Below, in pieces: positions 4,910-62,950 of a stretch of DNA of 64,000 nt. The position numbers were made by a program, and so were the translations under genes. Source of the stretch: a virus. Below the pieces are notes generated by a model, which had not been told where the DNA came from, did no database searches, and saw only the letters and a program-made list of their open reading frames with translations. Positions within the stretch are counted from its first letter, which is position 1, and every line of letters begins with the position of its first letter. Where the stretch lies: the IMG/VR virus record IMGVR_UViG_3300009503_000002. One strand, 5' to 3'.

Positions 4910-4938
4910 TTGACAAACTTGGAAAACTGTAGTAAAAC
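4910..4938 (+). promoter_or_regulatory. possible promoter (weak -10)
   Basis: TTGACA (4910-4915), 17 nt, TAAAAC (4933-4938), upstream of ATG 4967. Confidence 0.3.
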
Positions 4939-4966
4939 GTTGGTAAAACTTAGGGAGGAACGTGAG

Positions 4967-5323
4967 ATGGCTAAAAGAACTATCACGCTAAGAGGCATAC
5001 CATTCACACGCAAGGTTGGATGGAGAGGCGACGAAGTGCATGTCAAACCAACGAGTCCCACAGAGGGCGTCATCAGTTGGTCAAACTGCAAGAAGATGCC
5101 AGCAGGAACAAAGGTAAAACTCCCAGGATGGTATGAGATATATGATGAATATATATGGGACGAGCCGATTATCTTCAAGACGCAGGAAGTAACCGTCCGC
5201 GAGTTATTCTACCAGTTTCTGTTGTTGGAGTGGGACATTGCTGAGACACCTGTAAATCGTTTTGGGCAGACATTAGTGCCTCCAAAGGCTTTGAAGAGAC
5301 TTGAGGAGTTTGAGGAAGACTAA
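4967..5323 (+). CDS. small protein, member A of a four-gene paralog family (GTxVxLPxW motif)
   Basis: ATG 4967 follows GGGAGGA. Contains PAGTKVKLPGW, and its C-terminus resembles member C. Confidence 0.65.
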   Translation: MAKRTITLRGIPFTRKVGWRGDEVHVKPTSPTEGVISWSNCKKMPAGTKVKLPGWYEIYDEYIWDEPIIFKTQEVTVRELFYQFLLLEWDIAETPVNRFGQTLVPPKALKRLEEFEED

Positions 5324-5330
5324 AAGTGTT

Positions 5331-5381
5331 GCGCCAAAGCCGGTACTGGCTGTGTACCGGCGCGGCGCTTTTTCGTTTTTT
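5331..5381 (+). terminator. rho-independent terminator
   Basis: Hairpin GCGCC..GCCGGTAC-TGGCTGT-GTACCGGC..GGCGC followed by TTTTTCGTTTTTT. Confidence 0.6.
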
Positions 5382-5470
5382 CAATGCCCGTAAGGGCATT
5401 ACCGGTACGGCCAGAGCGCGGTAGCCGCGCCGGTAAAGATAGTAAAGGCCGCGCGAAAAGGAGGTTTGTG

Positions 5471-5998
5471 ATGCAAAGCATGGTGTTTTTGCGGGAGACC
5501 CCGTACAACCGTCATGGTTGCACGGGGAGAACAGTGGCAGTTAGGCCACTCACTGCCACTGTCGGAGTCGTAGTATGGGTGGGAGTGCCCTGCTACATCT
5601 GTGAAGAAAAGCAGGACGCACCCCCGATTCCACCAATCGGGACAATCGTAGAACTACCCGATTGGGGGGTAGTCAAGAGGTGCTGGGAGGGCGAGATAGA
5701 GGGAGAGGATGTTTTATGCTCACTAAATGGAGAGCAAGTACCCCTCTCCTCCATACTCACGAAGGAGCCCCTAACCTGGGCGACTGCCGCGCTAATGTGC
5801 GGCAAGTCGCACAACATGAGTCTCATCCGGAATGTGTTCCTTCCGGATGGAATCGAAGCCGGGCCGGACTGCACACTGGTCTGGCCTAGCAAATTGGTGG
5901 TAATCTACCGGGACCCACTGCGGGACCTGGTAGAAGATTTTATCTCACACAGAGTTGGGTTCGCCGCCCTGCGGCGAGCGTTGGAGGGGGTGTATTAG
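5471..5998 (+). CDS. small protein, member B of the GTxVxLPxW paralog family
   Basis: ATG 5471 follows AAAGGAGG. The ORF-track start at 5384 runs through a hairpin and was rejected. Contains PIGTIVELPDW, and its C-terminal IYRDPLRDLVEDFISH matches member D. Confidence 0.65.
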   Translation: MQSMVFLRETPYNRHGCTGRTVAVRPLTATVGVVVWVGVPCYICEEKQDAPPIPPIGTIVELPDWGVVKRCWEGEIEGEDVLCSLNGEQVPLSSILTKEPLTWATAALMCGKSHNMSLIRNVFLPDGIEAGPDCTLVWPSKLVVIYRDPLRDLVEDFISHRVGFAALRRALEGVY

Positions 5999-6067
5999 CC
6001 TTCATTTTTTCGCCCTAGCCGTTTGCCGGTGGGCGGCTAGGCATGATAGATAACACCGGTTGCTACC

Positions 6068-6104
6068 AGCGCGCTGGCCTAAACCAGCGCGCTTTTTATT
6101 TTGG
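6068..6104 (+). terminator. rho-independent terminator
   Basis: 10-bp stem AGCGCGCTGG/CCAGCGCGCT with loop CCTAAA, followed by TTTTTATTTT. Confidence 0.65.
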
Positions 6105-6157
6105 TAATGCCCGTTAGGGCACTAAAAAACAAACATATAAAAAGGAGGTATACGAAA

Positions 6158-6532
6158 ATGGCCATTATAACTCTCAAGTCTGGGCAGTGGCGTTATCACA
6201 GCACTGTGGTAATCATCGAGACCACGAGTGCTACAGAGGGGACTATGATAGGGGGCGCGACATGTTCGGGCGGCCTTGTTTGCACTGAAAAAAGTCCCAT
6301 TCCAGTTGGGACGCGCGTCCGCTTGCCAAATTGGGACAGCGTGTATGTCCCTGGCAAGCGAGGGTGGATGGAAAGCACAAAGGTCAGGTATAATGGTGGG
6401 CGAAAAATAACACTAAAAACGCTTCGCAAGTTGTCGCCGGTGTTAGACTGGTGGGTTGCCAGCGCCACTGTTGACCTGGCCGGCAACACATTGATTCAAG
6501 TAAATAGTTTGGAGCGCCTTGCCGGTGCGTAA
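6158..6532 (+). CDS. small protein, member C of the GTxVxLPxW paralog family
   Basis: ATG 6158 follows AAAAGGAGG. Contains PVGTRVRLPNW. Confidence 0.65.
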   Translation: MAIITLKSGQWRYHSTVVIIETTSATEGTMIGGATCSGGLVCTEKSPIPVGTRVRLPNWDSVYVPGKRGWMESTKVRYNGGRKITLKTLRKLSPVLDWWVASATVDLAGNTLIQVNSLERLAGA

Positions 6533-6579
6533 GTGCCGGCAAGAGACGCCCTTTTATTTTCTGAAAGGAGGTTACTGCG

Positions 6580-6648
6580 ATGGGTGAGGGAAAAAAAGTG
6601 TATATTGTCTATACGAGTCCTGTCCGCATGACGGTTACGGCTTGGTGA
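6580..6648 (+). CDS. possible 22-codon leader ORF coupled to member D
   Basis: ATG 6580 has a strong RBS (GAAAGGAGG). It contains an A7 run, and its TGA (6646-6648) overlaps GTG 6645 of the next ORF. Confidence 0.3.
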   Translation: MGEGKKVYIVYTSPVRMTVTAW

Positions 6649-7016
6649 TTTATATTGACGCACTAAGCCGTGATGTCGGTTACGTGATGGGAGGCGGCAG
6701 TTGCAGAGTTTGTTCAGATGGCCGCGCGCCGGTTTTGAATGGAACGATTGTGCAACTGCCGGACTGGGCAGATGTTTTGCGGGGGGAGTTTTGTCAGGAC
6801 CCGCGGACTGGGCGGGTGGTGCGGGTAACTGACCTTTCTGCAAAGGTGCGTCTGACCTGGGAGGTGGCGGTATACCGGTGTGGTGGAGGCACATTAGTAC
6901 GGCCACGTGATTTGCGGGTATTGTACCGTGATGCGTGGCGTGATTTTATAGACGATTACTTTGAGCATTGGGGTAGCAAACCGTGTCAAAGCGGTGGTAG
7001 GCGCAGGAAAAAGTGA
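6642..7016 (+). CDS. small protein, member D of the GTxVxLPxW paralog family
   Basis: Contains LNGTIVQLPDW and VLYRDAWRDFIDDYFEH. It has no SD of its own; the start (TTG 6642 or GTG 6645) is probably reached by coupling to the leader ORF. Confidence 0.55.
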   Translation: MVIYIDALSRDVGYVMGGGSCRVCSDGRAPVLNGTIVQLPDWADVLRGEFCQDPRTGRVVRVTDLSAKVRLTWEVAVYRCGGGTLVRPRDLRVLYRDAWRDFIDDYFEHWGSKPCQSGGRRRKK

Positions 7017-7048
7017 AAGATTTGGTGTATATAAAGGAGGATGTTGCG

Positions 7049-7270
7049 ATGCGCAAGCGGGAAGTTTGTAAAAAAGTGCGGGAATTGGATAGGGCGGGGG
7101 CAAGTGCTTTGGTGATATACCGGTGCTTGTTTCCGCGGGACAGTGTACCGGATTACCAACATATTTTGAAAGCCGGTACGCTGTATTATCAGTATGGTGG
7201 CGCTGACAGAGAGTTATGGCAAGATTTTGTTAGGCTTGCCGTGGAAGCGGGTTGGAAAGGAGGCCAGTGA
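7049..7270 (+). CDS. hypothetical small protein
   Basis: ATG 7049 lies 8 nt after AAAGGAGG. 73 aa. Confidence 0.5.
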   Translation: MRKREVCKKVRELDRAGASALVIYRCLFPRDSVPDYQHILKAGTLYYQYGGADRELWQDFVRLAVEAGWKGGQ

Positions 7271-7404
7271 TGCGTGACGATATGTTAGCGGGACTGATGC
7301 CGTTTGTTGGGTTTTTAGGGCTCATTATCTTTTTACTCATCCTGGTTGCAGCGGGTTGGTTGCAACCGGACTTAGGCTGGGTCTATCACTTACTTGGGAG
7401 GTAA
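7270..7404 (+). CDS. 44-aa single-pass membrane peptide
   Basis: ATG overlaps the preceding TGA. Hydrophobic core FVGFLGLIIFLLILVAAGW. Too short for the ORF track. Confidence 0.4.
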   Translation: MRDDMLAGLMPFVGFLGLIIFLLILVAAGWLQPDLGWVYHLLGR

Positions 7405-7407
7405 AAA

Positions 7408-8535
7408 ATGGAGCGCACTGTGGTTGTAAAACAGGCTATCGCCATAGCAGTGCAGGCCGATGTGCCGGTATTGCTATGGGGTGGGGTCGGCGAGGGAAAG
7501 TCCTCGTTTGCACGGCAATTGGCCGCGCAGTTAGGTTGGGGGATTGTTACGGTTGTCGGGCAACTGCGGCAACCGACAGACTTCCTCGGTATTCCTTTTC
7601 CTCAGGAGCTTCCTGGTGGCCGGCTTGGCACGGTATATGCCGTGCCGGACATTGTGCTGGAGTTGGAGCGGATTGCGGAGGCCGGCCAAGTCCCTCTACT
7701 GTTCCTAGATGAGATAACCTTCCAGGATGAGTTGTTGCAAGCCGCGATGTTTCGCCTTGTCCTGGAGCGGGTGGCCGGCAATTACCCGCTTCCAGCGGGG
7801 ACGCGTGTATTGGCCGCCGCGAACCCGCCAGGGGTTGGTGGGTCACGCGCGTTGTCGCCGCAATTGGCTAACCGGTTCTGCCACGTTGAGTGGCAATCGT
7901 CGGCTAGCGATTATATCAAGGCATTGCGGACGGGGCAATGGGAATTCCGGTTGCGTCTGTTGCCGGATGATTGGAAGGCGCGTATTCCGGAGGCCGCTGG
8001 CAAGATGGCGGACTTCCTGGAAGCGCAACCGGCGGAGGGCGCTGGGATAGGCGCGTACAAGCCGGAGGAGGGGTGCTGGGCGTTTCCGACTCCTCGGACG
8101 CGCGATATGGCGGTGCGCTTGCTCGCGGCTTGCGAGGCAGCGGGCGCGCCGTTAGCGGTACGCGATGTATTAGGCGAGGGTTGCGTAGGTGCGCATGAGT
8201 GGCAGCGTTTTGCGCAATTTTTGCGTCAACGAGGCCATAAGCCGCAAGATTACCTAAGCGGCAAGGCGCAATTGCCCCAAGATAGCCTATTGTTGCCGGA
8301 TGTCCTAAGTCGCATTGAGGCGCATGTGCGGGACAATCCGGAGAAAGATGTTTTTTTGGCGGCCTTGCGTCTGATTTCGCAGTTAGTGGAACATCCTGAC
8401 CTGGCCGTGCCGTTTGTGCGCAATGTTCGTGACGCCATACCTGACCAAGCGGCAATCGCGGCTTGGTTACGGGACGCGCCGGATGTTGCTGATTTGATTC
8501 GGCAGTTACTGCAGCGGACGGCGGGAGGTGACTAA
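7408..8535 (+). CDS. MoxR-like AAA+ ATPase (AAA_5/CbbQ-NorQ type)
   Basis: Walker A GGVGEGKS, Walker B LLFLDEITF, single AAA module with a helical C-terminal region. RBS GGGAGG. Confidence 0.85.
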   Translation: MERTVVVKQAIAIAVQADVPVLLWGGVGEGKSSFARQLAAQLGWGIVTVVGQLRQPTDFLGIPFPQELPGGRLGTVYAVPDIVLELERIAEAGQVPLLFLDEITFQDELLQAAMFRLVLERVAGNYPLPAGTRVLAAANPPGVGGSRALSPQLANRFCHVEWQSSASDYIKALRTGQWEFRLRLLPDDWKARIPEAAGKMADFLEAQPAEGAGIGAYKPEEGCWAFPTPRTRDMAVRLLAACEAAGAPLAVRDVLGEGCVGAHEWQRFAQFLRQRGHKPQDYLSGKAQLPQDSLLLPDVLSRIEAHVRDNPEKDVFLAALRLISQLVEHPDLAVPFVRNVRDAIPDQAAIAAWLRDAPDVADLIRQLLQRTAGGD

Positions 8536-9731
8536 TGGACGAGGCAATGGTAAAACTTCGGCAGGCAAAGGCCGTATTGCTTCGGACGGGCAATGCGGCC
8601 TGGTTGGAAAGATTGCTTGTGCCTGCTCCGCTGATTGAGAGCGACGCTTGCCCAACGCTGAGTGTGGATATGCATGGGCGGGTGTATTTCAATCGGGAGT
8701 ATGTGTTAGAGCGGAGTATGGGCGAATTAGTGGCCATTCTGTGCCACGAGATGGAGCACCTAAGGAGGCTACACTTTGCGCGTGCGCCATATGGCGCGCA
8801 AAGTGACGGCGGCGTTTTCCAGCGCTGGAACGTATGCGCTGATGCAGAGATAAACGATGATTTGGAGTTGTGGTTTCGGTACAGTCCGGACATTACGTTG
8901 CCAGCAGGCCGGATAACGCCACAAGGGTTAGGGCTTGCACCTGGCCTAACGGCGGAGGAGTATTTTAGACAATTGCCGGCGGGACAGACGCTGCCGGACT
9001 GTGGGACAGGTGGCTCGGCGAGTGACGGGGTGCAACGGGCTTGGGAGTTAGGCGCGCCGGATGAGGAGCACCCTGGCCTAACAGAGCGGGAGATTCGGGA
9101 AGTGGTCAAGGAAGCCGCTTCCAAAGTGCCTCCTGGGCGTCGAAGCGCGCAAGGCGCTGGCCGTGAAAGCCGCAGCGAGTTACGGCAATTTGGGGACGTT
9201 GACGACGCACGTTGGGTGCAATTGGTGGTAACAGAATTGCGCCGTGAGTTGCGGCTAGGGACAAGTAGGTATGACATGATGCGGCCCAACCGGCGCTTGA
9301 TGGGTGTTACGCGTGCTGTTTTGCCGGAGGTGGTACGGGACAGACGGCGCGCGTTGGTAATTGTTTTAGATGTTTCGGGCTCGATGTCTGAAAGCGAGCT
9401 CGCCATTGCCGAATCTATCGCAAAGCAAGCCGTAAACGATTATCGGGACGTTTGGTTTGTGGCTTGCGATGCGGATGTGAAAGCGAGCGTGAAAGTTACG
9501 CGGGGCGCTGATATTCGGCAATGGGCGATTGGCGGGGGTGGGACTAACCTAAACCCTGGCCTGGTGGAAGCGGTACGTTACCAACCTGATGTGGTATTGC
9601 TGATAACGGACGGCGATGTGGGTAAGCCGTATATCGAGAGCAATCCTGGCACGTATGACCTGATAGCGGTATTGACCAAGCCTGGTAGGGGGACTGCTCC
9701 CGATTGGGCAAAGCGCGTGATAAGGAGGTAA
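8535..9731 (+). CDS. zincin-like metallopeptidase domain fused to a von Willebrand A domain (DUF2201-type partner of MoxR ATPases)
   Basis: HEMEH (HExxH) in the N-terminal half. VIVLDVSGSMSE (MIDAS DxSxS) in the C-terminal half. Start overlaps the ATPase stop (TAATG). Confidence 0.85.
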   Translation: MDEAMVKLRQAKAVLLRTGNAAWLERLLVPAPLIESDACPTLSVDMHGRVYFNREYVLERSMGELVAILCHEMEHLRRLHFARAPYGAQSDGGVFQRWNVCADAEINDDLELWFRYSPDITLPAGRITPQGLGLAPGLTAEEYFRQLPAGQTLPDCGTGGSASDGVQRAWELGAPDEEHPGLTEREIREVVKEAASKVPPGRRSAQGAGRESRSELRQFGDVDDARWVQLVVTELRRELRLGTSRYDMMRPNRRLMGVTRAVLPEVVRDRRRALVIVLDVSGSMSESELAIAESIAKQAVNDYRDVWFVACDADVKASVKVTRGADIRQWAIGGGGTNLNPGLVEAVRYQPDVVLLITDGDVGKPYIESNPGTYDLIAVLTKPGRGTAPDWAKRVIRR

Positions 9732-9734
9732 AAC

Positions 9735-10358
9735 GTGAACAGATGGTGTGAGAGTTGCAAGATTGATAACTTCCTGGAATGCCCATTACTTTTGCTAGCG
9801 TCAAACAGTCCGGCGACTGTTTTATATACGCTCAATGACCGGTTGTGGGTTGAGCGGTTGGGTGATGATTGCCCACGCGGGCTTTGGCCAAGTAGAGAGT
9901 GGCGCACTGACTATCTCACAACGGTAGCGGTATCTATTGTGCTGCCATTATTGCAACCATGCCCCGATTGCCCCTTACCTGACAATTACGAATCGTTCTA
10001 TCAATCACGGGTAATGGCGATGTTGGACTTAGTGCGGGTGCATAAGTCTCCTGAGAGCATTGCGTTTGTGGGGTACTACGACCATGCGCTACAGATTACG
10101 GACTCGCTGGAATGGACGCCATATCATACTTGGGACAGTAAGCGGGTGTTTTGGCAATTGCACGGTGACCTGTGGCTTACGCCGGTTTGCATACCTGATT
10201 ATGCGCGCCGAATTCAGGTCAATGTTGACGCACGTGATGGAAGGGGTTGGGTTGAAGGTATAAAGTGGCAGTTTCGTGACCATGACCTACTGTGTGACTT
10301 GGTTATCGCGCGGGCGTATAGGAAGTTGCCGGACGAAGGTGTGATTTGGATGGTGTGA
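9735..10358 (+). CDS. Cys-rich paralog 1 of 5 (N-terminal CxxC..C, central CPxC)
   Basis: GTG start after AAGGAGG. Contains WCESCKIDNFLECP and QPCPDCP. Confidence 0.65.
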   Translation: MNRWCESCKIDNFLECPLLLLASNSPATVLYTLNDRLWVERLGDDCPRGLWPSREWRTDYLTTVAVSIVLPLLQPCPDCPLPDNYESFYQSRVMAMLDLVRVHKSPESIAFVGYYDHALQITDSLEWTPYHTWDSKRVFWQLHGDLWLTPVCIPDYARRIQVNVDARDGRGWVEGIKWQFRDHDLLCDLVIARAYRKLPDEGVIWMV

Positions 10359-10359
10359 G

Positions 10360-10995
10360 ATGGACGATTTATTTGACTTGCTAGATGATGGGTTTGGCAA
10401 CGAGGCACTGTGCGAGGGGTGTAAGGCAACGAGTCCTCTTGATTGTGCGCGGCTTGTGCTTTCACAACCGGTTGACCATTTGTGGAAGGAGATATACGCT
10501 GTTGACGATTATCTCAACAGTTTCACCCTGCGCCGCTGTGACGTGATGCGGGAGACGTGCAAAGTGCGGGTTGGCGATATTTTATGTCGTTTACGGCCTT
10601 GTCCGGATTGTTCCGTCTCGGATGGTGTTTCGGCTTTCCGGATTTCAGAGTTGCAGGCGCTGTTGGAGTTTTCGCGCTGGCAGAAAGGAGCGGCAAAGCC
10701 TGGCTTCCTTGACCATATGCTTGAGGTAACAGTGTCTATCAATTGGGATATAACTAACCTTTCGTTTTGGTATGTCAACATAAAGATAGAGTATAGGGTT
10801 TGCTGTAATGGGCGCACAAAGGAGGAAGGGCACACACTGGCAGGCCGGACAGGTATAGATGGGTTTCCGATTAGCCGCATTCAGAGGTATATGCAAAGTT
10901 TTCCGCAATTTCCTGGAAAACAGCGCTTCGTTGATATGGTAGTAGCGAAAGCAGAGGAGACGATTCCACCTGAGTTGTTGATACTATCTATTTAG
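10360..10995 (+). CDS. Cys-rich paralog 2 of 5
   Basis: Starts 1 nt after the previous stop. Contains LCEGCKATSPLDC and RPCPDCS. Confidence 0.65.
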   Translation: MDDLFDLLDDGFGNEALCEGCKATSPLDCARLVLSQPVDHLWKEIYAVDDYLNSFTLRRCDVMRETCKVRVGDILCRLRPCPDCSVSDGVSAFRISELQALLEFSRWQKGAAKPGFLDHMLEVTVSINWDITNLSFWYVNIKIEYRVCCNGRTKEEGHTLAGRTGIDGFPISRIQRYMQSFPQFPGKQRFVDMVVAKAEETIPPELLILSI

Positions 10996-11005
10996 GAGGT
11001 GTAAG

Positions 11006-11611
11006 ATGGCAATCTGTGATGGATGCAAAGCCGAGGAGGCGTTTGACTGTTCACTTTTGCAATTGGAGTCGAAGGGAACGTATCATCTGTCGGATATGAT
11101 TACATGTCGGGTCAACCGGCGCTGTCCCAAAGGTATTTTTCCGTCTGGGGTGCGTAAACTTGAGTTTCCGGCGCAGGCACTGATAAAAAGATTGCAACCG
11201 TGCCCTGTTTGCGGCGATATGGTGGCGGACAACCTAACGGAGTTTAGGTTGTCAACATTACAGATAGGGCTTGAGACGGCTAGGGCGCTGCCATTGCGCC
11301 TAGACCGCCATACGCCAGGGGTATTTGACCATGTGCTGATTGCGCAATCGTGCTTGCAATGGAGGCCGATTGGCTTACATGGCGGGCGGATGACAGCGTA
11401 TGTGTTGGATGGCTATATTCGGCTATGGCCGTTCTGCAGGGCGGACGTCCAAGTTCGCGTTGGCTTTTGGCTTACGTTTCAGGAGGGTTGGGAGAGGATA
11501 ATCAGGAAAGTGTACGACCATGCGCCGGCCTTCGCTGGGTTAGCGGTTCGGTTTGCCAAACAAGCGATGCAAGATATAGGCGATGCGGCAGTCCTGATTT
11601 ATGCGCTATAG
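11006..11611 (+). CDS. Cys-rich paralog 3 of 5
   Basis: The preceding TAG is embedded in TAGGAGG. Contains ICDGCKAEEAFDC and QPCPVCG. Confidence 0.65.
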   Translation: MAICDGCKAEEAFDCSLLQLESKGTYHLSDMITCRVNRRCPKGIFPSGVRKLEFPAQALIKRLQPCPVCGDMVADNLTEFRLSTLQIGLETARALPLRLDRHTPGVFDHVLIAQSCLQWRPIGLHGGRMTAYVLDGYIRLWPFCRADVQVRVGFWLTFQEGWERIIRKVYDHAPAFAGLAVRFAKQAMQDIGDAAVLIYAL

Positions 11612-11620
11612 GAGGCAAGT

Positions 11621-12121
11621 GTGTACTGTACAGTATGCTCAAAGCGCTGTCCTAGACCGACAGAGTTAGAGATAGGGGGCTTTTACAAGCAAGGCGCGAT
11701 GATTGCTTTCGGGTCATGTTGTTATGTTATCAAGCGCCGCTTGGTTCGGTGGGAGTATTTGACTGGCCTGTTTGTGAGGTGCGGGGCTTGCTTGGAGGCC
11801 GCTCAGAGGCCGCGCCTTTCGGCCTGGTTTGAGGATGCCCCGTTTAGGCCGCTGATTGATACGATTTATGGGCCGCGACAACGGGGTTATCTTTCCCACC
11901 GTTTTGAGTTTGAGATTCTTGAGAAAAGGCATGGGGCTTATTATTTATCGGCCAGACAGGTATGTACAGGCCGCACCTGGGAGTACATGTTTGGAGTGTC
12001 TGAGCCGCGACCGTTGGAGGTAGAGCGATTGCTGTTGGCCTATGACTGTCCTGAGTGGCTTGCTGAGGGGCTTGTCAAGCGATATTTTGACAGCGGAGAG
12101 CGTTTGATATGGCTTATCTAG
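11621..12121 (+). CDS. Cys-rich paralog 4 of 5
   Basis: GTG start after TAGGAGG. Contains YCTVCSKRCP and RCGACL. GYLSHRFEFEIL is shared with paralog 5. Confidence 0.6.
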   Translation: MYCTVCSKRCPRPTELEIGGFYKQGAMIAFGSCCYVIKRRLVRWEYLTGLFVRCGACLEAAQRPRLSAWFEDAPFRPLIDTIYGPRQRGYLSHRFEFEILEKRHGAYYLSARQVCTGRTWEYMFGVSEPRPLEVERLLLAYDCPEWLAEGLVKRYFDSGERLIWLI

Positions 12122-12130
12122 GAGGTTTCG

Positions 12131-12685
12131 ATGCGAAAAGAGTGTAAGGGGTGCAAGGATTTGCAATGTCCTGGCCTGCTATTGTTTTATGAGGCTAAGC
12201 AGTTGGAGAGCGGGTTAGTTGAGTGTACAGGCAACCTGTTTGTTGCCCCTAGCAATCGCTGTGCGTTGTTCAGCAAGGACGTCCTTAGACTTCCAGATGT
12301 TATGGCCAGGATTGAGCGGTGTCCCGATTGTGAACAGGCGATTGAGGCCGGCGATTTTTGGTGGGACGAAGCACCGTTTCCGACGTATATGGTGCAGATT
12401 CTCCAGCGTCCTGGTTGCCGTGGGTTTTATTCACACAGGTTTCAGATTTTGGTGGGCTGCTCAAGGGCTGAGTTTGACGGGCCAAATGGTCAGAGGATAA
12501 GTTGTGTGTTGCTTGAGGTGGTGTTCAGGCGGGTGTGCGATAGGCAGACAAAGGGTAGCCGGTTTGAGGTTTTACGGCTCGCTGAGCTGCCGCCGTTGCT
12601 CAAGCGGGAGTTTCCAGGGCCGCTGTACGAGTTGATATGTCAGAGGTGTTTAGACCGGCCTGAGTTGGCTATTGCGATGATTTAG
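12131..12685 (+). CDS. Cys-rich paralog 5 of 5
   Basis: Follows TAGGAGG. Contains ECKGCKDLQCP, RCPDCE and GFYSHRFQILV. Confidence 0.65.
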   Translation: MRKECKGCKDLQCPGLLLFYEAKQLESGLVECTGNLFVAPSNRCALFSKDVLRLPDVMARIERCPDCEQAIEAGDFWWDEAPFPTYMVQILQRPGCRGFYSHRFQILVGCSRAEFDGPNGQRISCVLLEVVFRRVCDRQTKGSRFEVLRLAELPPLLKREFPGPLYELICQRCLDRPELAIAMI

Positions 12686-12694
12686 GAGGCTAAG

Positions 12695-13558
12695 ATGGTA
12701 ATCGAACAGAGCGATGGGCGTTTCACAGTGATAGATGAGAGTGACCAAGAGGTGATTGTGTCTGACCTTAGGCTTGAGACGGGCGCTAGGCTCCTTGATA
12801 CGCTGGTGAATGCCCCGATTAGCGATTTGTACAGGCCGCGCGGCGAAGTGCGCAAGCGCCTGGTTGACTTGATAGTCCAGGAGCCGGTTGGGGTAGCCTG
12901 TACTAACTGGTTGGTCAGGGATGCGGTTTGTGAGGCCGGCCGTACACTTTTCACCTGTCCCTTTGTGGAGTTTAGGACGACTAGCACTGACCTTCTAACT
13001 GGGTCTGGAGTGAAGCTTGACCTCATCGGTGGCTGGGGCAAGTGTGTTACCGCCACCATTAGGGAAGACGTGCCTTGTATCAAGCGTAGCGTGCCATGTA
13101 ACACAATCCACAAGGGGTGGATACTGCCGCGCTCGCTTATCACCGTTCTGCTGAGCAGAACAGTTGCATGTCCAGCCTGTGCGCGGGCCACGAAGGGCTT
13201 TGAGCTCACGCCGCTTTTCCTAAAGGAGATTTTTGCAACACATTTTGCGTTTCCTTCGGGATTTCTCTCCGCGCCAGACCCTGAGCAGGCCAAGCAACTG
13301 GTTCTGGCGGTTCGGCACAAGATGCGGTTTACTCGTATTCGCATGATGGAAGCAGGCGGGCAACAACATATAGTGGGCAGGCTTACGCCGGCCTGTGGGC
13401 GTAAGTTGCCGGTCGGGAAGCCAATTCCCGTGGGCTGTCCAGGGCCAGGTGATTACTCCTACTACTGGGCAGCGGTAAGCCTACAACACTTGGAGAACAT
13501 ATCTCCTCTCGAAAAGGTTCTGCTGGATGAGGCTGGGCTTGGGATATTTATGGTGTAA
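12695..13558 (+). CDS. hypothetical protein, possibly a divergent sixth member of the array
   Basis: Has the same TAGGAGG junction and contains CPAC. Otherwise not clearly alignable by eye. Confidence 0.55.
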   Translation: MVIEQSDGRFTVIDESDQEVIVSDLRLETGARLLDTLVNAPISDLYRPRGEVRKRLVDLIVQEPVGVACTNWLVRDAVCEAGRTLFTCPFVEFRTTSTDLLTGSGVKLDLIGGWGKCVTATIREDVPCIKRSVPCNTIHKGWILPRSLITVLLSRTVACPACARATKGFELTPLFLKEIFATHFAFPSGFLSAPDPEQAKQLVLAVRHKMRFTRIRMMEAGGQQHIVGRLTPACGRKLPVGKPIPVGCPGPGDYSYYWAAVSLQHLENISPLEKVLLDEAGLGIFMV

Positions 13559-13577
13559 GGGCTGCGGTAGATATGTT

Positions 13578-14171
13578 TTACATTCCGCTTGATATGGGTT
13601 CGGCCAGGCTGCTCGCTGCGATTGCTCTGGTAGTGGATGCGGGCAAGAGTTTTCGCACCGCTTCCCTCAGGTCAGCCGCGAACGCTTCCCGCTTGTTGTC
13701 GGGCACATACTGGGCCGCGACCTGCCCGACTGCCTGTAGCACTAGACCTACTACTCCAACGTGGATGTACATATGCTTGGATGTCTCCAAGTCTTGTAGT
13801 CGCGTTGCCAGCTCCCCGATTGATTTTGCGAGGGTGGTGAGGTCGCGGTTCTCACCTTCCAGTGCCATCTCGAAAAAGCGCGAGCGAAGCACCGCCAGTT
13901 CGTATCGAAGGTTCATGAGCTCCTCATCATTCTGGAGCATGCGCATCACTAAGGCCCGTAACTGTGGGTCGAGCAAGTATATGAGGGGTGGGTATCTGCT
14001 TTCGCCGGCCAACACCTTCCCCTCGTGGAATTTGCAAGGGCCTACTCCTGGATGTTTCGTGCCCCAACCGGCGGGCTTGAGACATGGCTTTCCTACAAGG
14101 TTTTTGGCGCCACAGCGGGGCATGAAATCCCGTCTGAACCTAGTCTTTTCCCCTACGTCTTCCATTGCCAT
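13578..14171 (-). CDS. hypothetical protein with an N-terminal Cys/His cluster
   Basis: PRCGAKNLVGKPCLKPAGWGTKHPGVGPCKFHEG followed by a coiled-coil. Composition is far more protein-like than the overlapping + strand ORF 13573-14247. One of only two minus-strand genes. Confidence 0.55.
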   Translation of the reverse strand: MAMEDVGEKTRFRRDFMPRCGAKNLVGKPCLKPAGWGTKHPGVGPCKFHEGKVLAGESRYPPLIYLLDPQLRALVMRMLQNDEELMNLRYELAVLRSRFFEMALEGENRDLTTLAKSIGELATRLQDLETSKHMYIHVGVVGLVLQAVGQVAAQYVPDNKREAFAADLREAVRKLLPASTTRAIAASSLAEPISSGM

Positions 14172-14243
14172 CCCTAGTTTATCCCTCTACTATCCCGTGA
14201 TGATACCCTACATTACCCATTTCGTCAAGTTTGGGGAGGTAAT

Positions 14244-14780
14244 ATGAGGATTTATGTTCAGCGAGAGTTGCATATGGTGAGGGCTGGCATACGGGAGATG
14301 TTGCCGGAGCACAAGGTTGTGGATACGCCAGGACAGGCAGACGTGTTGGTGTTATCGGCTGAGGCTTATGTGCCACAGGAGAAGCCGACGCTTCTCTTTT
14401 GTGCTGGCAAGTTTCCGGCCTTGGTTGGCGCTGAAGTATGTGGAATTATCCAACCCACGACGACGGCTGAGGAACTTCGCTGTATGCTCAAGGGGAAGCT
14501 GGACCCAGCGCTTGCTCTGGCGAAGTCGCTGTCCGCTAGGATTGCGATGTTATGTAAAGTACAGGAATTGCTCACGCCGTCCGAAGTGGCGGTGCTGCGT
14601 GGCTTAGCAGGCGGGCTGTCCCTGAAGGAAATATCTGAGAAGTGCTATCTTTCGTACCAGACTGTTCGGCATGCGGTATCAACTGCCTGCCGCAAGTTAG
14701 GCTGTGCAAACTCAAACCAGCTTATCATCATTGCCGCGTCTGTTTTCCCTAGCGAGGCTTTTAATAAGGAGGGGTTGTGA
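14244..14780 (+). CDS. LuxR/GerE-family transcription regulator
   Basis: C-terminal LTPSEVAVLRGLAGGLSLKEISEKCYLSYQTVRHAVSTACRKLG is a typical LuxR HTH. The N-terminal part is receiver-like but short. RBS GGGGAGG. Confidence 0.75.
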   Translation: MRIYVQRELHMVRAGIREMLPEHKVVDTPGQADVLVLSAEAYVPQEKPTLLFCAGKFPALVGAEVCGIIQPTTTAEELRCMLKGKLDPALALAKSLSARIAMLCKVQELLTPSEVAVLRGLAGGLSLKEISEKCYLSYQTVRHAVSTACRKLGCANSNQLIIIAASVFPSEAFNKEGL

Positions 14781-15553
14781 GTTCTCAAGCCATTGTGAAC
14801 CAGAAAGCAGTTCTAGATGCTTTGCGGGTATTACTGCCGCAGCGAATCCCCGTGTTGCTTGTGGGCCCGCCAGGGACAGGGAAGACTTTGATTGGGCTGT
14901 ATGCTCTCTCGTGGGAAGGTGGCAGGGTGTTACGGGTTGACTGCGGCCAGACTACTCAGCTCAGTCCACACCATCTCTTTGGAAAGGCCGGCATACTCCT
15001 AGATGAGATTCACTGCCTCAAGACGCCAGAAGCTATCTACCCACTTCTGACAGAGAACAAGGTTACCATAATCGGAACAACGACAGATGAGGGCCTGTTA
15101 CCCGAAGCGCTTCGCTCCCGTTTTTTCACCCTCTGCATGCAACCATATACCCTTCAAGACCTCACTACGATTGCGATGAGTTATGGGCTAGACCGAACGA
15201 CTGCCGGCCTGGTTGCAGAGGCCAGCCGTGGGATTCCCCGTCGTGTGGTTCAGTTTGCCGTGCTTTTACGGTTCACCGTTCCTCACACCCGCGATACATT
15301 CTACAAGACACTGGCGAAGTTTGGCTGGCCGTTAGGCCTCAGCTACCGCGAGCTCACCTACTTGCGAACCGTTGCACGGAAGCCTACTTCCCTCTCCACC
15401 CTCTGTGGCATCCTCCAGGCCGGCCCGGAAACAGTTCGTTCCACTGAGGCGTTCCTCATCTCCGCCGGCCTCGTCGAAATCACCTCCCGTGGCCGCTCCA
15501 TCACACCCACTGGCCTCGCCATCCTCCAAGAGGCTGAACAAGTCACATCCTGA
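14777..15553 (+). CDS. RuvB-like AAA+ ATPase (short form)
   Basis: GPPGTGKT, ILLDEIH and an RSRF arginine finger. The C-terminal EAFLISAGLVEITSRGRSITPTGL matches RuvB domain III. GTGA overlap with the previous gene. Confidence 0.8.
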   Translation: MSSQAIVNQKAVLDALRVLLPQRIPVLLVGPPGTGKTLIGLYALSWEGGRVLRVDCGQTTQLSPHHLFGKAGILLDEIHCLKTPEAIYPLLTENKVTIIGTTTDEGLLPEALRSRFFTLCMQPYTLQDLTTIAMSYGLDRTTAGLVAEASRGIPRRVVQFAVLLRFTVPHTRDTFYKTLAKFGWPLGLSYRELTYLRTVARKPTSLSTLCGILQAGPETVRSTEAFLISAGLVEITSRGRSITPTGLAILQEAEQVTS

Positions 15554-15675
15554 GTATCGAGTGGAGTATCCATTTCGGCAACAGAATTCTCTTTGTCTCT
15601 TTTTGTTCTTGTGTTTGTCCTGCCAGGGTCTTTTTTGCTTTGCCTCAGTTCTTTCTCCCTACCTTGCATCCTAAC

Positions 15676-15704
15676 TTGACAAGCTCTGAGGATTGTGGTA
15701 CAAT
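15676..15704 (+). promoter_or_regulatory. strong sigma70-type promoter with extended -10
   Basis: TTGACA (15676-15681), 17 nt, TGgTACAAT (-10 hexamer 15699-15704). Confidence 0.55.
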
Positions 15705-15710
15705 GATTGT

Positions 15711-15770
15711 GGACAAGAGGATAAGTTGGTATATTTGTCTTTGCCCCGCCTGCCGCGGGGCTTTTGTTTT
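15711..15770 (+). ncRNA. candidate ~60-nt small RNA
   Basis: Bounded by the promoter above and the terminator at 15743-15770, with no RBS. The only ORF through it (15640-15876) runs across the terminator hairpin. Confidence 0.4.
15743..15770 (+). terminator. rho-independent terminator
   Basis: GCCCCGC-CTGCC-GCGGGGC followed by TTTTGTTTT. Confidence 0.6.
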
Positions 15771-15860
15771 GTCCCTCCCCCCACTCCCCTCCCCCACTCC
15801 TCTCAACGTCCTCTCTTCCCTATTCCGGCTATGGGTTACGGGCTCCGGACTTCTATATAA

Positions 15861-16255
15861 CACCATGGTACTATAATACCATGGTACCATGTTAACATGT
15901 ATACCATGATATATATATAGCGCCTTAAAACTTTAAAACACCTTTTAAAGGTTTTAAAACTTTTAAAGGTTTAAAACACTTCTCTTCATGGACTATAACA
16001 CCATGGTAATACACCATGGTACCATGGTAATACACCATGGTAATACACCATGGTAATATATATAGAGCGTTAAAAGTTTAAAAGCCCTTTTAAAGGTTTT
16101 AAAGGTTTAAAAGGTTTTAAAACACCCGAACACCATTTAAAACTTTTAAAGCCCTTTAAAGAGTTTTAAAAGTATATAGAACACCCCATACACCTTTTAA
16201 AGGTTTTAAAAACATCAACACCCAGACACCTTTTAAAGCTTTAAAAGGATTACGG
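15861..16255. repeat. iteron/AT-rich repeat region, putative replication origin (or partition/packaging site)
   Basis: Two modules, each with ACCATGGTA-core repeats, then a TATATATA tract, then many TTTAAA/CCTTTTAAAGG units. The second module has the 13-bp unit ACACCATGGTAAT in tandem 4-5 times (15998-16057). Non-coding, and sits between replication-type genes. Confidence 0.6.
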
Positions 16256-16328
16256 CACCCATACACCTATCACCTAACACCTTCCCTAATCTTGCAACAA
16301 ATGCGTACCCTACACAAACAGTTGTGCC

Positions 16329-16357
16329 TTTACATCCCGACACATCCAGAGTATAAT
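16329..16357 (+). promoter_or_regulatory. sigma70-type promoter of the replication/recombination module
   Basis: TTTACA (16329-16334), 17 nt, TATAAT (16352-16357). Confidence 0.6.
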
Positions 16358-16408
16358 CAGGGCGCAAAACAGGGCGTAGGGAAACGACCTAAAATGGAAA
16401 GGAGTACC

Positions 16409-16960
16409 ATGCTAGACGAATATTTCAAGAAACGACAGGAGTTCATCATCGGGCAAATCACAAACCTCTCCCTCACCGAGCAAGAGTACGGCCCTCGGAT
16501 TGTCGTAGAGATTACGCCAATCGGTGAAACCACCCCTACTCTCCTCTTCTTCTCTGCTTCCACACATCGCCGCTCGAAGTGGCAGCGCTGGCTTAGCATG
16601 ATGCGGAAACTCAACCCTAACATCAATTCCGCTAACGACCTCATCAAGCAAATCGTGAAGCTGGAGCTAATCGAGGAGACCTACAACGTAGAGGGAAATT
16701 CCCAGATTTCGGAATTCTGGGTGCCCCGCAAAATCTACACATCCGAAGCTGAGGCTCTTGCCGACAGCGATTTCGTGCCCGCTGGGGAACGGCTTGGCCT
16801 CCGTCCTACCGAAACTAAGGCCGCCCTCCCACCCGAAATCGTGATGGCTGCGAAAGCTCTCTACGCTAACCTCCATGATGTCAACGCCTTCCGCATCGTG
16901 GCTGGTCAGTCCTGGCCACAGTACAACGTAGAGGAACTAATCGCAGCAGCCACCAGCTAG
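16409..16960 (+). CDS. hypothetical protein
   Basis: ATG 16409 follows GGAAAGGAG. The ORF-track start at 16292 lies upstream of the promoter. Confidence 0.55.
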   Translation: MLDEYFKKRQEFIIGQITNLSLTEQEYGPRIVVEITPIGETTPTLLFFSASTHRRSKWQRWLSMMRKLNPNINSANDLIKQIVKLELIEETYNVEGNSQISEFWVPRKIYTSEAEALADSDFVPAGERLGLRPTETKAALPPEIVMAAKALYANLHDVNAFRIVAGQSWPQYNVEELIAAATS

Positions 16961-25340: not shown

Positions 25341-28300
25341 ATGGTAACTTTGAAAGTCCCATTTGTTTCGGTTCAGTGGCCTGAGATAGCCGATGGCCTA
25401 ATCAGAGGGAAGTTTGACACAATCCTGAAGTCAAGAGATTTCATGCAGTTCGTGCAAAAGCCCATCTTTCTTGTCTCACCAATAGGTGTCCATGGAAAAG
25501 TATTGCTTTCGCGACCACATGAAATCTCAGTGCGAGAGGCTATCGAGCTCAAGTCCCGCCACGGCCTGAGTGAGGACATCATTCGACATCAATGGCCTGG
25601 TGCGCCCAAGCTATATGCTTTCACAGTTGTCATCATTGAGGCGTTCAAGGAACCATTGGCTGCTGAGCTTCCTATACCACTGCCAGCCTTTGGCGAGTCG
25701 GTCACATTCAAGAACAAGGCACCCTCTGATATCTCAGCGATTGCTGACCTTGAGACTTATGACCCTGACAAAGCGACGAGGCAGCAACGCCTCGATGACT
25801 GGCGCATTCTCATTGCCCATTATGCAAACCACCTAGCAGGCCGAAAGACTCCTTACCCGAAGGACTTAATCATCAAGAAGGCCATCGAGCTCGCCCAAGC
25901 TATGCGCGAAGACGGTGTGGTTTTCCATCCTGATACCATGACACCCGCAGGCCAGGACTTGTTCGAGAAGGTCTTGGCCAAATTACCAGACTTACCCCAC
26001 ACTCTGACCGACGAGGAACTCTCTACACCAATTGGAAACGTAAAACGTCTCTCACTTCAGCGCCTCAAAGCACTTCATCAGAACTTACATCTCACTTGGC
26101 AACAGAAGGAGAAAAGCGAAGAAGTTGCAAACCTTCACATTGCAGTCGTAGATGCTCTCCACTCCAAAGGGCAGAAAGTTGACTGCCCAGATGATGGGCT
26201 AGGAAAAGCGCTGCCTAGTTACCCTACAAAGACGAGTGTGGCTGACGAACCTGAGGTCACCTTCACTGCTTATGAGAATGCGGTGTCACTAATCGGCTCA
26301 ACTGTCTATGCACAGTTTGCTGATGTAGAACCTCATGATGTAGATATCCTGTTTCGTGACATCCCTTCAGAGCCGCTCGCCCACTATCTCGCATCTCACG
26401 TTGACCCTACACTGCCTGTACACATCTCACTCGAATCGACTGGCCCAAACTGGGATTACATTGGCTTAGGGGACTACGTGCTCTCAAACACCGAGCCAGA
26501 AGCACAAGTTGAGGATGCAGTCCTTAGGGGATTGCTTGACGTTAAACCATTTCTCGTCAAGCCTAGCTTCGTGACCACTTCTGATAACACCCTATTCGTG
26601 GACTCATTCCCAGCATCTGGCCTTGAGCTGAAGCTTAGTCGGTGGTTCAAGAAGCCTGTCCAGTTTCTTTTGGAGGGCGAGGAACCTGTCTTAGACTTGT
26701 GGTTCGTTCCACGGCGAAAGATTACCCTGAATTTCCTAGAGAATGATGACAAGTTTCGGCGCGCGTACTTCAACTTGTCACAGGAGATAAAAGCCAGCAT
26801 CAAGCCAGGAAAACCGTTCAGACCGTTAAAGGCCCAAGGCGGCTATCACATTGGAGAGTTCTACACCGTTGAAGACGCCATTACCTTTTGGGCAACGCCA
26901 GAACGGTTGCGTGAAGGGATTCTCGTCGAGCCAAAGGTAGATGGTATCCGCCTTGTCCTCCACAAGCAGGATGATAAAGTCTGGATTTTTACAGAGGATA
27001 AGCAGCGAGACCGTGCAGAAGTGCTACCTATGCTGGTCGAAGCCGCACGGAAGCTCAAGCATGATGTAGTCTTGGACATGGAGACAGTTGAATACGATGA
27101 CGAGGGCAACCCTATCCCACGCCATGAGATGGTAGAACTCGTTGTCTCAAAGTCACCACCCAAGCGTAAGCTGATTGCCTGGGTTCACGACTGCTTGTTC
27201 CTTGATGGGAAGGACTTATCTGGCCAACCAGCAATCGAACGCATCCGAACTGTTCATGAGTTGCTTAGCGAGGGAATCCTTCGTCCTATGCCGTTCCGTT
27301 TGGTGAGAACTGCTGATGACCTCAAGAGGGCGTTTGAGTGGGCTAGCACTTTCCGTGAAGGTGCCTCGGAAGGTGCAATGCTGAAAGAGGCAAACTCTCC
27401 TTACTCTGGCGAGCTCACACCAGCCTGGGCTAAAGTGAAGCTAGTTCGGGAAATCAAGGTTCAGGTGATTGGCATTCTGCGCAAAGCGATGCCCTGGCAT
27501 GAGAAGCCAGCGGGTGAGCTCAGAGGTACTGAGGCAATTCAGGCTTATAAGAGGCTAGCCCAGGACTCCGATACCTATTTAGTCAGAGGTGCAATCCTTG
27601 GGCCAGATGGGAAGCTAAAGCCCATTGAGGCTAAGCGTGAGCTCATGCCAGGAGACCTAGAGCTACGCTGGACTGGCTCGGAGTGGCGGGGCCTGGAGTG
27701 TCCGGAGATTTGGCAGATGGCACCAGGTTGGCCGCACCGTAAGCCTGGTGAGCTAGCATACGGGACTACATATGCATTGGCATTCCCTGAAGGGCCTCCT
27801 AAGTTCGGTGACATTGTTACAGTCCGCCCAATGGAGATGCAAATCTTCGAGTGGGGCGGTGAACAGCATGTTGCCTGGATGTTCCCCATTCTGCAAGAGG
27901 TGGACCCAACACGTCGGAAGCCCGACACCTGGGAAGATGTCCTACGGATTGTTGAGTTCACGAAAAAACGACACAAAGGCGTTCCAACCAAAGAGGAAGT
28001 TGGGATTTCTGAGGGTGTACGTGTTCCGCTTACCCGCGACGAAGCAAGGGTTGCTACTAAGAAGAAACTAGGCTATGACTGGTACGTAGTGAGGCAGCCG
28101 CCAAAGAAGACCGTTGACTTCGTGATGCAGCTGCACATCCGAGGAATTGTGACGCCTGATGGCGCACCATACTTGCGTAAGTTGCTCCAGACTGCAAAGA
28201 CGGATGAGGAGCGGAAGAAAATCTGGGCTGACTGGGGCCTCTGCACGCTCAGAATACCATTACCTGAGCTCTCGAAGAAGCTTCAGGAGCTGGATGACGA

Positions 28301-61488: not shown

Positions 61489-61738
61489 AGTGATGTACGT
61501 GGCCAGCTCTGTCCTAAAGGCAGCCAAAGGGCTGCCTTGTACGCGGGAGCAGCTTGAGCGGTTGAGTGAATTAGCGGGCGGAGCCGCTGACCATATCGCA
61601 AAATGGGCGTATGGGAGGCCAGCTCAATCACTCTCGATGGCTGAGATGGGAGCATTGATTTTATGGTTTGAACAGGAGCCGCCTGATGTAAGATGCCTAG
61701 TCCTGAGCGAGGCCGAGAACCAAGAGATACCCTTCTAA
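61442..61738 (+). CDS. hypothetical protein
   Basis: ATG 61442 within the ORF-track frame 61373-61738. Overlaps the previous gene. Confidence 0.4.
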   Translation: MSRNPKVIEAEKRSLEVMYVASSVLKAAKGLPCTREQLERLSELAGGAADHIAKWAYGRPAQSLSMAEMGALILWFEQEPPDVRCLVLSEAENQEIPF

Positions 61739-62202
61739 CGCGACATGGTTTTCACAGAAGCACACTGGGACGGGCGCTTGTTTGGAAGGAAGTCAAGTTT
61801 TTGGGAATACCTCTGAAGACATTAGCAGGCATTTTCTGGCAGACTAACGGTTTTAAGCGAAGGCACACTTGCCGTGGTTGTGGATACATAGAGGTCTGTA
61901 GAAAACAAGTTGCGCAAGGGAATTATGCTGGTTGTGAAGTTCCGTTAATCGGAGAGCTCTTTTGGGAGCAGAAACAAAGGTTGAAGGAGAATGCTTTGAT
62001 GCGAGGGAAAAGAGAACAAATCAATGTGGTCAAGATAGTCTGTTCTGTCTGTGGTAATGAGCTGAAGGTAGAGAGCCGGGAGTTCGAAGAAGGTGTGTTT
62101 CAGGCAGAAGTAAGCCCCTGTCAGAACTGCATGACAAACCGCTTGAAGGCGGTTCTGCATCTCCTGGCTACTACGAAGTCATCTGATGGGAAGCAGAAAT
62201 GA
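61693..62202 (+). CDS. Cys-containing protein whose C-terminal ~70 aa is a zinc-ribbon paralog of 62951-63202
   Basis: VKIVCSVCGNELKVE...EVSPCQNC. Start uncertain: the alternative ATG 61999 has the RBS GAAGGAGA. Confidence 0.4.
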   Translation: MPSPERGREPRDTLLTRHGFHRSTLGRALVWKEVKFLGIPLKTLAGIFWQTNGFKRRHTCRGCGYIEVCRKQVAQGNYAGCEVPLIGELFWEQKQRLKENALMRGKREQINVVKIVCSVCGNELKVESREFEEGVFQAEVSPCQNCMTNRLKAVLHLLATTKSSDGKQK

Positions 62203-62303: not shown

Positions 62304-62732
62304 ATGGTAGAGGTGCAAAGTGCTTGGGTAGGTAAGGCTGCTCATCGCTTTGCCTCCTTTCCAAAGCAGGCTGAGTTTGGGACGCGCCAGATAAGGCGTC
62401 AGGTAGGGGCTGGCCGCGCGGGTTGCGCAAATTGCGGAGTAGAGTGCCCCAAGTTCCCAACTCAGCCTGCTTTTTCCTATCATCTACCGCCCGGAGGTTT
62501 TGTTCAGATGCGTTGTTATGTGTGCAACCAGAAGCTGAAGTGGACTGAACGTGGATGGGTTCATTCAAACGGCAGCGGGAAGCTGACCGAGTGTCTTAGG
62601 TGCGGGTGGTGCGGTGCACTCTCTGCATTAGCCGATGAGTGCCCTAGATGTCATGCGGTTGGCTTCCTCAAGACACATTCGCCTGTGCCAGTGCCGGACA
62701 ACACAAATGGAGGGATAAAACATGGAAACTAA
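62304..62732 (+). CDS. Cys-rich (multi-CxxC) protein
   Basis: CANCGVEC, CYVCNQ, CLRCGWCG and CPRCH. Confidence 0.5.
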   Translation: MVEVQSAWVGKAAHRFASFPKQAEFGTRQIRRQVGAGRAGCANCGVECPKFPTQPAFSYHLPPGGFVQMRCYVCNQKLKWTERGWVHSNGSGKLTECLRCGWCGALSALADECPRCHAVGFLKTHSPVPVPDNTNGGIKHGN

Positions 62733-62937: not shown

Positions 62938-62950
62938 AGGAGGGGTTACA

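Follow-up and report, generated by a model that had tools for sequence, protein, structure and literature searches.

A tandem array of orphan, cysteine-rich paralogs with predicted metal sites follows a MoxR-VWA gene pair in a hot-spring phage genome

Positions 9735–12685 of the IMG/VR virus record IMGVR_UViG_3300009503_000002 were analyzed within a stretch of 64,000 nucleotides, which is referred to here as the window. Direct reading of this region gave five co-oriented open reading frames (ORFs) on the + strand, encoding proteins of 207, 211, 201, 166 and 184 aa (p1 to p5), just as the initial annotation had placed them, and independent gene callers made the identical five calls on four public assemblies of the same contig. 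These five proteins are true paralogs, and the gene directly downstream, p6, is probably a degenerate sixth member. The family has no detectable relatives elsewhere and is known from one phage genome. Its members share a collinear set of Cys and His residues that most likely hold two zinc sites. The surfaces around this metal-fixed scaffold appear to have drifted or diversified, so that the most likely role of the array proteins is as binding modules and not as enzymes. The array follows the genes of a MoxR-type AAA+ ATPase and of a VWA/zincin protein, and a functional link with this pair is proposed tentatively.

The kinship of p1 to p5 was measured with Smith–Waterman alignments, scored against 1000 composition-preserving shuffles. 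The z-scores were 23.7 for p1-p2, 26.6 for p1-p3 and 21.3 for p2-p3, and 8.4 for p4-p5, 8.4 for p2-p5 and 6.0 for p1-p5. All five are connected, with p5 bridging the two sub-groups. Hidden Markov models (HMMs) of the sub-groups were searched against the 805 six-frame ORFs of the window. The best non-self match of the p1–p3 model was p5 (E 0.005), and that of the p4–p5 model was p2 (E 2.7e-4); both were collinear, and no further copies were found among these ORFs. Global hhalign comparison of p1–p3 with p4–p5 gave P 1.6e-4, with every ligand position aligned. Pairwise identity among the paralogs is 16–31%.

The motifs quoted in the initial annotation were all present. The N-terminal CxxC with a third Cys and the second CxxC (PCPDCP, PCPDCS, PCPVCG, RCGACL, RCPDCE), 48–68 residues downstream, occur in 5/5 proteins, and the sub-groups carry the blocks YDHAL/LDHML/FDHVL in p1–p3 and GYLSHRFEFEIL/GFYSHRFQILV in p4–p5. 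A four-Cys signature had been described; these Cys are indeed shared, but the alignments showed a larger set, with seven Cys and one His invariant in p1–p5. In p1 numbering, the candidate metal ligands are C5, C8, C16, C46, C76, C79, H117 and C152. They are collinear, the Cys positions are homologous, and the Cys follow the spacing CxxC-x(3-7)-C-x(22-30)-C-x(19-29)-CxxC; the only His of p5, H102, is the conserved one. Besides the ligands, the invariant columns are only F88, G113 and I204, with no Asn and no second His among them. The knuckles C5/C8 and C76/C79 are both invariant in p1–p5, and the second, P-C-P-(D/V)-C, is of the classic rubredoxin/zinc-ribbon type. The Cys content of the array proteins is 3.5–7.1%, versus 1.24% in the remaining predicted proteome. 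Eight ligands is the number required by two tetrahedral sites and is thus enough for two metal sites, and the metal would most likely be zinc.

The C terminus is also conserved. A tail of the pattern x-I-hydrophobic-x-[VIL]-COOH was found in p1–p6 only, that is, in 6 of the 398 window ORFs of at least 60 aa. It is usually preceded by Glu or Asp, the full form being acidic-x-x-I-hydrophobic-x-[VIL]-COOH. The tails are DEGVIWMV (p1), PELLILSI (p2), DAAVLIYAL (p3), GERLIWLI (p4), PELAIAMI (p5) and EAGLGIFMV (p6).

The sixth gene, p6 (12695–13558, +), lies outside the range first described and is joined to p5 through the same TAGGAGG junction that recurs within the array. The encoded protein has 287 aa and is extended at its N terminus by 75 residues. 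Neither hhalign nor HMMER on its own gave p6 a significant score, but only 15 of 2000 shuffles reached its profile score. Collinear equivalents of C5, C16, C46, C76, C79, G113 and I204 were found in p6, without C8 and H117. The C152 motif reads LTPAC in p6 versus LTPVC in p1, and the p6 C terminus, GIFMV, falls within the shared tail pattern. These features suggest that p6 is probably a degenerate sixth family member.

Physical neighbours in the array are also closest relatives, (p1, p2, p3) and (p4, p5), indicating serial tandem duplication as the origin of the array. Nearly all invariant columns are Cys or His and identity is low, in agreement with the earlier proposal that tandem copies diverged except at their metal-binding residues. 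That proposal had further read the divergence as rapid and as the mark of a specificity or decoy family under diversifying selection, which the present data neither support nor refute. Synonymous differences between paralogs are saturated (pS 0.69–0.80, Nei–Gojobori counts), so that dN/dS between them is undefined. The searched collections held no orthologous arrays, and the array sequence was identical in four independent assemblies, without polymorphism. The JGI and Logan assemblies were identical to the window, and the sole SNP, G to T at 7992 within the ATPase gene, was the one difference in a comparison of the window with the ENA assembly over 19.7 kb. These data are fitted equally well by old duplicates that have been under ordinary purifying selection, with the scaffold held by metal. 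DNA repeats are limited to short remnants, such as the PCPxC codons.

The genes of the array are tightly packed, with gaps of at most 10 nt between neighbours from p1 to p6, all co-oriented. p1 (9735–10358, +) has a GTG start and encodes an acidic protein (pI 5.2). p2 (10360–10995, +; pI 5.2) starts 1 nt past the p1 stop, and its N terminus (10360–10401) carries an acidic-hydrophobic 14-residue extension, MDDLFDLLDDGFGN, present in p2 alone; this extension presumably recalls short acidic docking peptides such as SSB tails. p3 spans 11006–11611 (+; pI 8.6). p4 (11621–12121, +; GTG start, pI 8.7) is the minimal version of the family, and p5 (12131–12685, +) contains 13 Cys. The charge of the proteins therefore varies, p1 and p2 being acidic, p5 neutral, and p3, p4 and p6 mildly basic.

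The initial annotation had counted four TAGGAGG junctions, and four do exist; they are located from p2/p3 to p5/p6, the p1/p2 junction being TGAgATG. In each, the stop codon of one gene overlaps the Shine–Dalgarno sequence of the next: p2/p3 at 10993–10999 (6-nt spacer to ATG), p3/p4 at 11609–11615 (5-nt spacer to GTG), p4/p5 at 12119–12125 (5-nt spacer) and p5/p6 at 12683–12689 (5-nt spacer), all on the + strand. Window-wide, TAGGAGG was observed 8 times versus 6.7 expected and is not enriched, and stop-adjacent Shine–Dalgarno sites (TAAGGAGG, TGAAGGAGG) are common elsewhere in the genome, indicating that the junctions are ordinary translational-coupling signals. Only their clustering and identical geometry are notable, and this uniformity agrees with inheritance along with the duplicated unit.

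The array also appears to be connected to the genes upstream. The p1 Shine–Dalgarno sequence, AAGGAGG (9722–9728, +), falls within the final codons of the VWA gene, whose stop, TAA at 9729–9731, precedes the p1 GTG at 9735 by 3 nt. A strong terminator-like hairpin at 6068–6093 (+; 10 pairs, 8 of them G-C, with a T-run) is the likely upstream boundary of a unit comprising the ATPase gene, the VWA gene and the array. No strong terminator-like hairpin was detected in a scan of 6093–13558, which returned only weak + strand candidates of 5–6 pairs; the next strong hairpin is at 15743–15761. No Rfam RNA element was matched in 5000–16500. A gene on the – strand (13578–14171) is convergent on the end of the array; its N terminus is CGAKNLVGKPCLKPAGWGTKHPGVGPCKFHEG, and it gave a weak match to the NCBIfam HGGxSTG domain (E 0.035).

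The family was searched for in other collections. With full HMMER, a profile of the five proteins returned only p1–p5 from 1.84 billion representative proteins, and word-index protein searches with p3 and with p6 each returned only the query itself. Searches of Pfam, PHROGs and NCBIfam with p1–p6 gave no family at E up to 1, barring two chance-level PHROG matches (p3, E 0.21; p6, E 0.013). PADLOC gave no family at E up to 0.1, and the profile found nothing among PDB sequences at E up to 10. None of these five resources revealed a catalytic signature or a known domain in the array proteins, and no known structural or replication family was matched. At the DNA level, a blastn search with the region found nothing in 50,697 phage records. 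Viral contigs were also scanned with the VWA gene, the helicase or the family alignment as anchor, which yielded no relatives or no usable pattern. Literature on DUF2201, on MoxR/vWA proteins in phages and on tandem zinc paralogs in phages provided context, and the family is not described there.

Structures of p1 and p4 were predicted with AlphaFold2 on the five-sequence alignment. The p1 model had a mean pLDDT of 61 and a pTM of 0.57, with block-mean pLDDT values of 61–87 over residues 113–207, where a beta-meander and helices were modelled. The p4 model had a pLDDT of 51, and its C-terminal domain comprised three strands, two helices and a terminal strand formed from LIWLI. In both models, the better-modelled C-terminal half is predicted as an antiparallel sheet of 3–5 strands followed by 2–3 helices. 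Foldseek searches of PDB and BFVD with the p1 and p4 models gave no match at E ≤1e-3. COMM-domain ring proteins were matched by the p1 model at E 0.59–3.6 (probability ≤0.12, TM-score ≤0.4) and were not among the top 50 matches of the p4 model; because it did not recur with p4, this lead was dropped.

The Cys pattern was compared with those of known small proteins. The two CxxC knuckles are shared with zinc-ribbon and rubredoxin proteins, the second as P-C-P-(D/V)-C-(G/P/S). Unlike the knuckles of zinc ribbons, those of the array are separated by 48–68 residues; two more conserved Cys lie in the interval, and a conserved His and Cys follow the second knuckle. No zinc-ribbon profile in Pfam matched the array. 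WhiB-like Fe-S proteins and HNH-type CxxC...CxxC phage proteins are likewise small and Cys-rich, with at least four conserved Cys. WhiB proteins have the spacing C-x14-22-C-x2-C-x5-C, and ferredoxins CxxCxxCxxxCP. The order and spacing of the array Cys differ from both and no Whib or Fer4 Pfam model matched, so that membership of the WhiB-like or ferredoxin-type 4Fe-4S proteins was rejected. An HNH endonuclease was also rejected: p1–p3 share a DH dipeptide and p4–p5 have SH, but a conserved His...Asn...His arrangement was not found, there is no conserved Asn or second His, and no HNH Pfam model matched at E up to 1.

Other Cys-rich ORFs were noted near the far end of the window. A 142-aa ORF at 62304–62732 (+) has 10 Cys and four CxxC; its first motif, GCANCGVECPKF (CxxC-x3-CP), is similar to the one at the N terminus of p4 and p5, but the array HMMs did not detect this ORF. 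The ORFs at 61693–62202 and 62921–63202 (+) have a zinc-ribbon-like block in common (VCSVCGNELKVESREFEEGVFQAEVSPCQNC versus VCADCGSELEIEKQELKDGILTVEVGSCRKC) and form a third duplicated, Cys-rich family.

The genes preceding the array encode a pair that is apparently active, as judged from its intact active-site motifs. The MoxR-type AAA+ ATPase (7408–8535, +) has intact Walker A (GGVGEGKS) and Walker B (LLFLDE) motifs and matched phrog_1297 "ATPase" (E 2.6e-36); its Pfam matches were weak (AAA_5, score 21.0 at a cutoff of 22; Sigma54_activat). It is 35% identical over its full length (E 2e-45) to a bacterial bpMoxR/AAA_5 protein that adjoins a DUF2201 gene and carries PF20030 bpMoxR, AAA_5 and AAA_3, and 22% identical (E 5e-11) to the N4 gp24-like NTPase of phage Pokken. 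At 8535, the stop codon of the ATPase gene overlaps the start codon of the VWA gene. The VWA/zincin protein (8535–9731, +) combines a zincin motif (HEMEH) with a VWA domain with intact MIDAS (DVSGS) in a DUF2201_N plus DUF2201 architecture (PF13203, E 8e-13; PF09967, E 7.9e-14; phrog_1314, E 8e-37), and its nearest relatives, about 30–33% identical, are mostly actinobacterial. The pair as a whole is nearest to bacterial, mostly actinobacterial, modules, at 30–35% identity versus about 23% to N4-like phages. The ATPase gene is closely preceded by a second, unrelated tandem paralog family (4910–7016, +) of four ORFs at 4910–5323, 5384/5471–5998, 6101/6158–6532 and 6642–7016. They share the pattern GT.V.LP.W (AGTKVKLPGWYEIY, IGTIVELPDWGVV, VGTRVRLPNWDSVY, NGTIVQLPDWADVL), two have a C-terminal L.V.YRD..RD, and none of the four matched Pfam.

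Bacterial loci with a homologous pair were sampled. On 6/7 bacterial MoxR-DUF2201 contigs, the pair has co-oriented, non-enzymatic and often duplicated neighbours. On L008 (2124–9543) and L010 (1667–7158), these are an LRR protein and one or two ankyrin-repeat proteins upstream, with a tandem ankyrin pair in L008; on L009 (6825–10917), two tandem pentapeptide-repeat paralogs lie downstream of MoxR-DUF2201; and on L005, L006 and L011, the co-oriented neighbours are unannotated proteins. Variable partners of binding type may thus be a general, little-described feature of bacterial MoxR-DUF2201 operons. The phage pair is homologous to those of Streptomyces and of metagenome contigs and resembles them in having co-oriented partners of binding type. 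The bacterial partners are unrelated to the phage Cys-rich family in sequence and in fold type, and are without its C-terminal tail; array-like Cys-rich genes were absent from all other MoxR-DUF2201 loci inspected (seven bacterial contigs and two phages).

It has been proposed that the vWA protein captures a peptide of a partner protein, which MoxR remodels, and that phage pairs of MoxR and metallopeptidase-vWA proteins serve as chaperone and co-chaperone (Kaur et al., 2020, PMC7159879; Iyer et al., 2021, PMC7824862). As in the MoxR-vWA ternary systems (PMC7159879), a MoxR-type ATPase gene and a MIDAS-bearing vWA gene stand side by side here, and non-enzymatic, fast-diverging partner genes come next in the operon. 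As in the pairs of jumbo and N4-like phages (PMC7824862; N4 gp24/gp25-like), the vWA domain is fused to an N-terminal zincin. Unlike the ternary systems, this phage has no VMAP, iSTAND, FtsH or beta-propeller component, and carries six orphan Cys-rich paralogs instead. With none of the four defined third components present, the array was not filed as a member of the ternary systems, and is only possibly similar to them in its working.

These comparisons led to a tentative proposal, in which the upstream chaperone pair may take the paralogs, recognised by their tail, as alternative clients or adaptors. The link to the pair is drawn because the p1 Shine–Dalgarno sequence lies inside the end of the VWA gene, no strong terminator separates the genes and the active-site motifs are intact, and because the nearest bacterial modules have co-oriented, often duplicated, non-enzymatic neighbours. 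The metal sites, one of them including the rubredoxin/zinc-ribbon type CPxC knuckle, would brace an N-terminal module ahead of a C-terminal domain of sheet and helices. With the scaffold held by metal, the surfaces could drift or diversify, as the pI range of 5.2–8.7 would reflect. The conserved tail, acidic and hydrophobic, would be caught by the MIDAS site of the VWA domain or by the peptidase, after which the ATPase would remodel the captured paralog or let it go. A stronger form of this idea appears unlikely: the six proteins would be the dedicated client/adaptor set of a virus-encoded MoxR-VWA-zincin machine, a new phage-borne multi-component system in which the tail serves as a docking or cleavage signal and duplication multiplied the cargo while the tail and metal sites stayed fixed.

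Several observations weigh against the client/adaptor proposal and the picture of the proteins behind it. Adjacency and translational coupling are usual in this compact genome, whatever the function of the genes. Two other phages with the ATPase-VWA pair, the N4-like Pokken and the PA5oct-like jumbo vB_Pa-PAC2, have nothing array-like. The region may be no more than a breeding ground for accessory genes, as the four-member paralog family upstream of the ATPase would suggest. The N-terminal module was poorly modelled by AlphaFold2, with pLDDT <50 over much of its length, and the candidate metal binding is read from sequence alone.

About equally likely as the client/adaptor proposal, and held just as tentatively, is the view favoured in the initial annotation, that the paralogs are host-directed binders independent of the chaperone, each an accessory protein of early or middle infection that blocks or redirects a different host factor in host takeover or counter-defence, with duplication driven by an arms race. 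The position of the array in the early/replication region beside other duplicated small genes agrees with this view, as do the divergent surfaces and charge on a fixed scaffold, the lack of enzymatic motifs, and the lack of homologs in searches, which is typical of fast-evolving accessory genes. However, dS is saturated and the array shows no polymorphism, no defence-related profile was matched in PADLOC, and a tail invariant in all six suggests a common partner rather than six different ones. The proteins might also be subunits of one hetero-oligomer, made in fixed proportions by stop/start coupling and packing, for example, through the C-terminal strand. The same coupling geometry at four junctions and the 1-nt gap between p1 and p2 would suit such an assembly, and so would the mixture of acidic and basic members and the conserved hydrophobic C-terminal segment, a beta-strand in the p4 model. 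Coupled junctions are common in this genome, though, and the weak COMM-domain ring matches of the p1 model (E ≥0.59) were not reproduced with p4. We regard this arrangement as quite unlikely.

Two further explanations start from the Cys-rich module itself, and both seem improbable. Zinc-finger regulators binding nucleic acid, acting on phage or host transcription or replication, would account for an N-terminal module with CPxC knuckles, for the mildly basic p3, p4 and p6, and for neighbours that include a LuxR-type helix-turn-helix (HTH) protein and replication/recombination genes. Acidic p1 and p2 (pI 5.2) and neutral p5 do not suit this role, no DNA-binding zinc-finger, HNH or primase-type profile was matched, and repeated operator-like DNA was not found nearby. 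The Cys set might instead bind an iron-sulfur cluster, the paralogs being redox or cluster-carrier proteins serviced by MoxR-VWA; this could be combined with the other explanations and has a similarly slim chance. The motif CxxC-x(3-7)-C-P and another C-P recall the Cys-Pro endings of ferredoxin type, and the source is a hot, largely anoxic spring. Several MoxR-VWA systems, namely CoxD/E, NorQ/D and RavA-ViaA, serve metal-centre enzymes, which would also fit. However, no Fer4 or other Fe-S Pfam family matched, the canonical CxxCxxCxxxCP spacing is absent, and CPxC knuckles together with a His ligand are seen more often at structural zinc sites.

We know of no established role for the widespread phage MoxR plus VWA/zincin pair (N4 gp24/gp25-like), nor of any identified substrate. 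If the array does supply substrates or adaptors, it would offer six related partners from a thermostable source, tractable for studies of recognition. Even without the chaperone link, a lineage-restricted scaffold, predicted to be metal-braced, is present six-fold in one virus and is useful for following the origin and divergence of orphan families. The significance is limited by the single phage genome, and tandem paralog arrays and small Cys-rich proteins are not unusual in viruses of thermophiles. What is new here is the protein family; tandem-duplicated, metal-braced small accessory proteins in a thermophile virus are a familiar kind, and here they possibly form a variant MoxR-vWA multi-component module.

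The window covers nearly all of a 64.6-kb contig that was recovered identically in several Yellowstone assemblies; Ga0078972 is a Yellowstone metagenome (PMC8986864), and SRR6049666 is from Obsidian Pool (PMC10762115). The genome encodes a large terminase, a portal, a protease-capsid fusion, a tail tube and a 1675-aa tape measure protein, indicating a siphovirus-like phage. The array lies in the early/replication part, with Dam-type methylases, a Holliday-junction endonuclease, a LuxR-type regulator, a RuvB-like ATPase, an ERCC4 nuclease and a DinG-like helicase nearby. Just past the portal gene, a 1219-aa protein (25341–29000, +) contains an ATP-dependent DNA ligase domain (PF01068, E 7e-19), and both its place in the structural module and its size are unusual for a ligase. 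GC skew is positive over 1–14 kb and 26–64 kb and negative over about 14–26 kb; the genes stay on the + strand throughout, and the first switch falls just past the end of the array.

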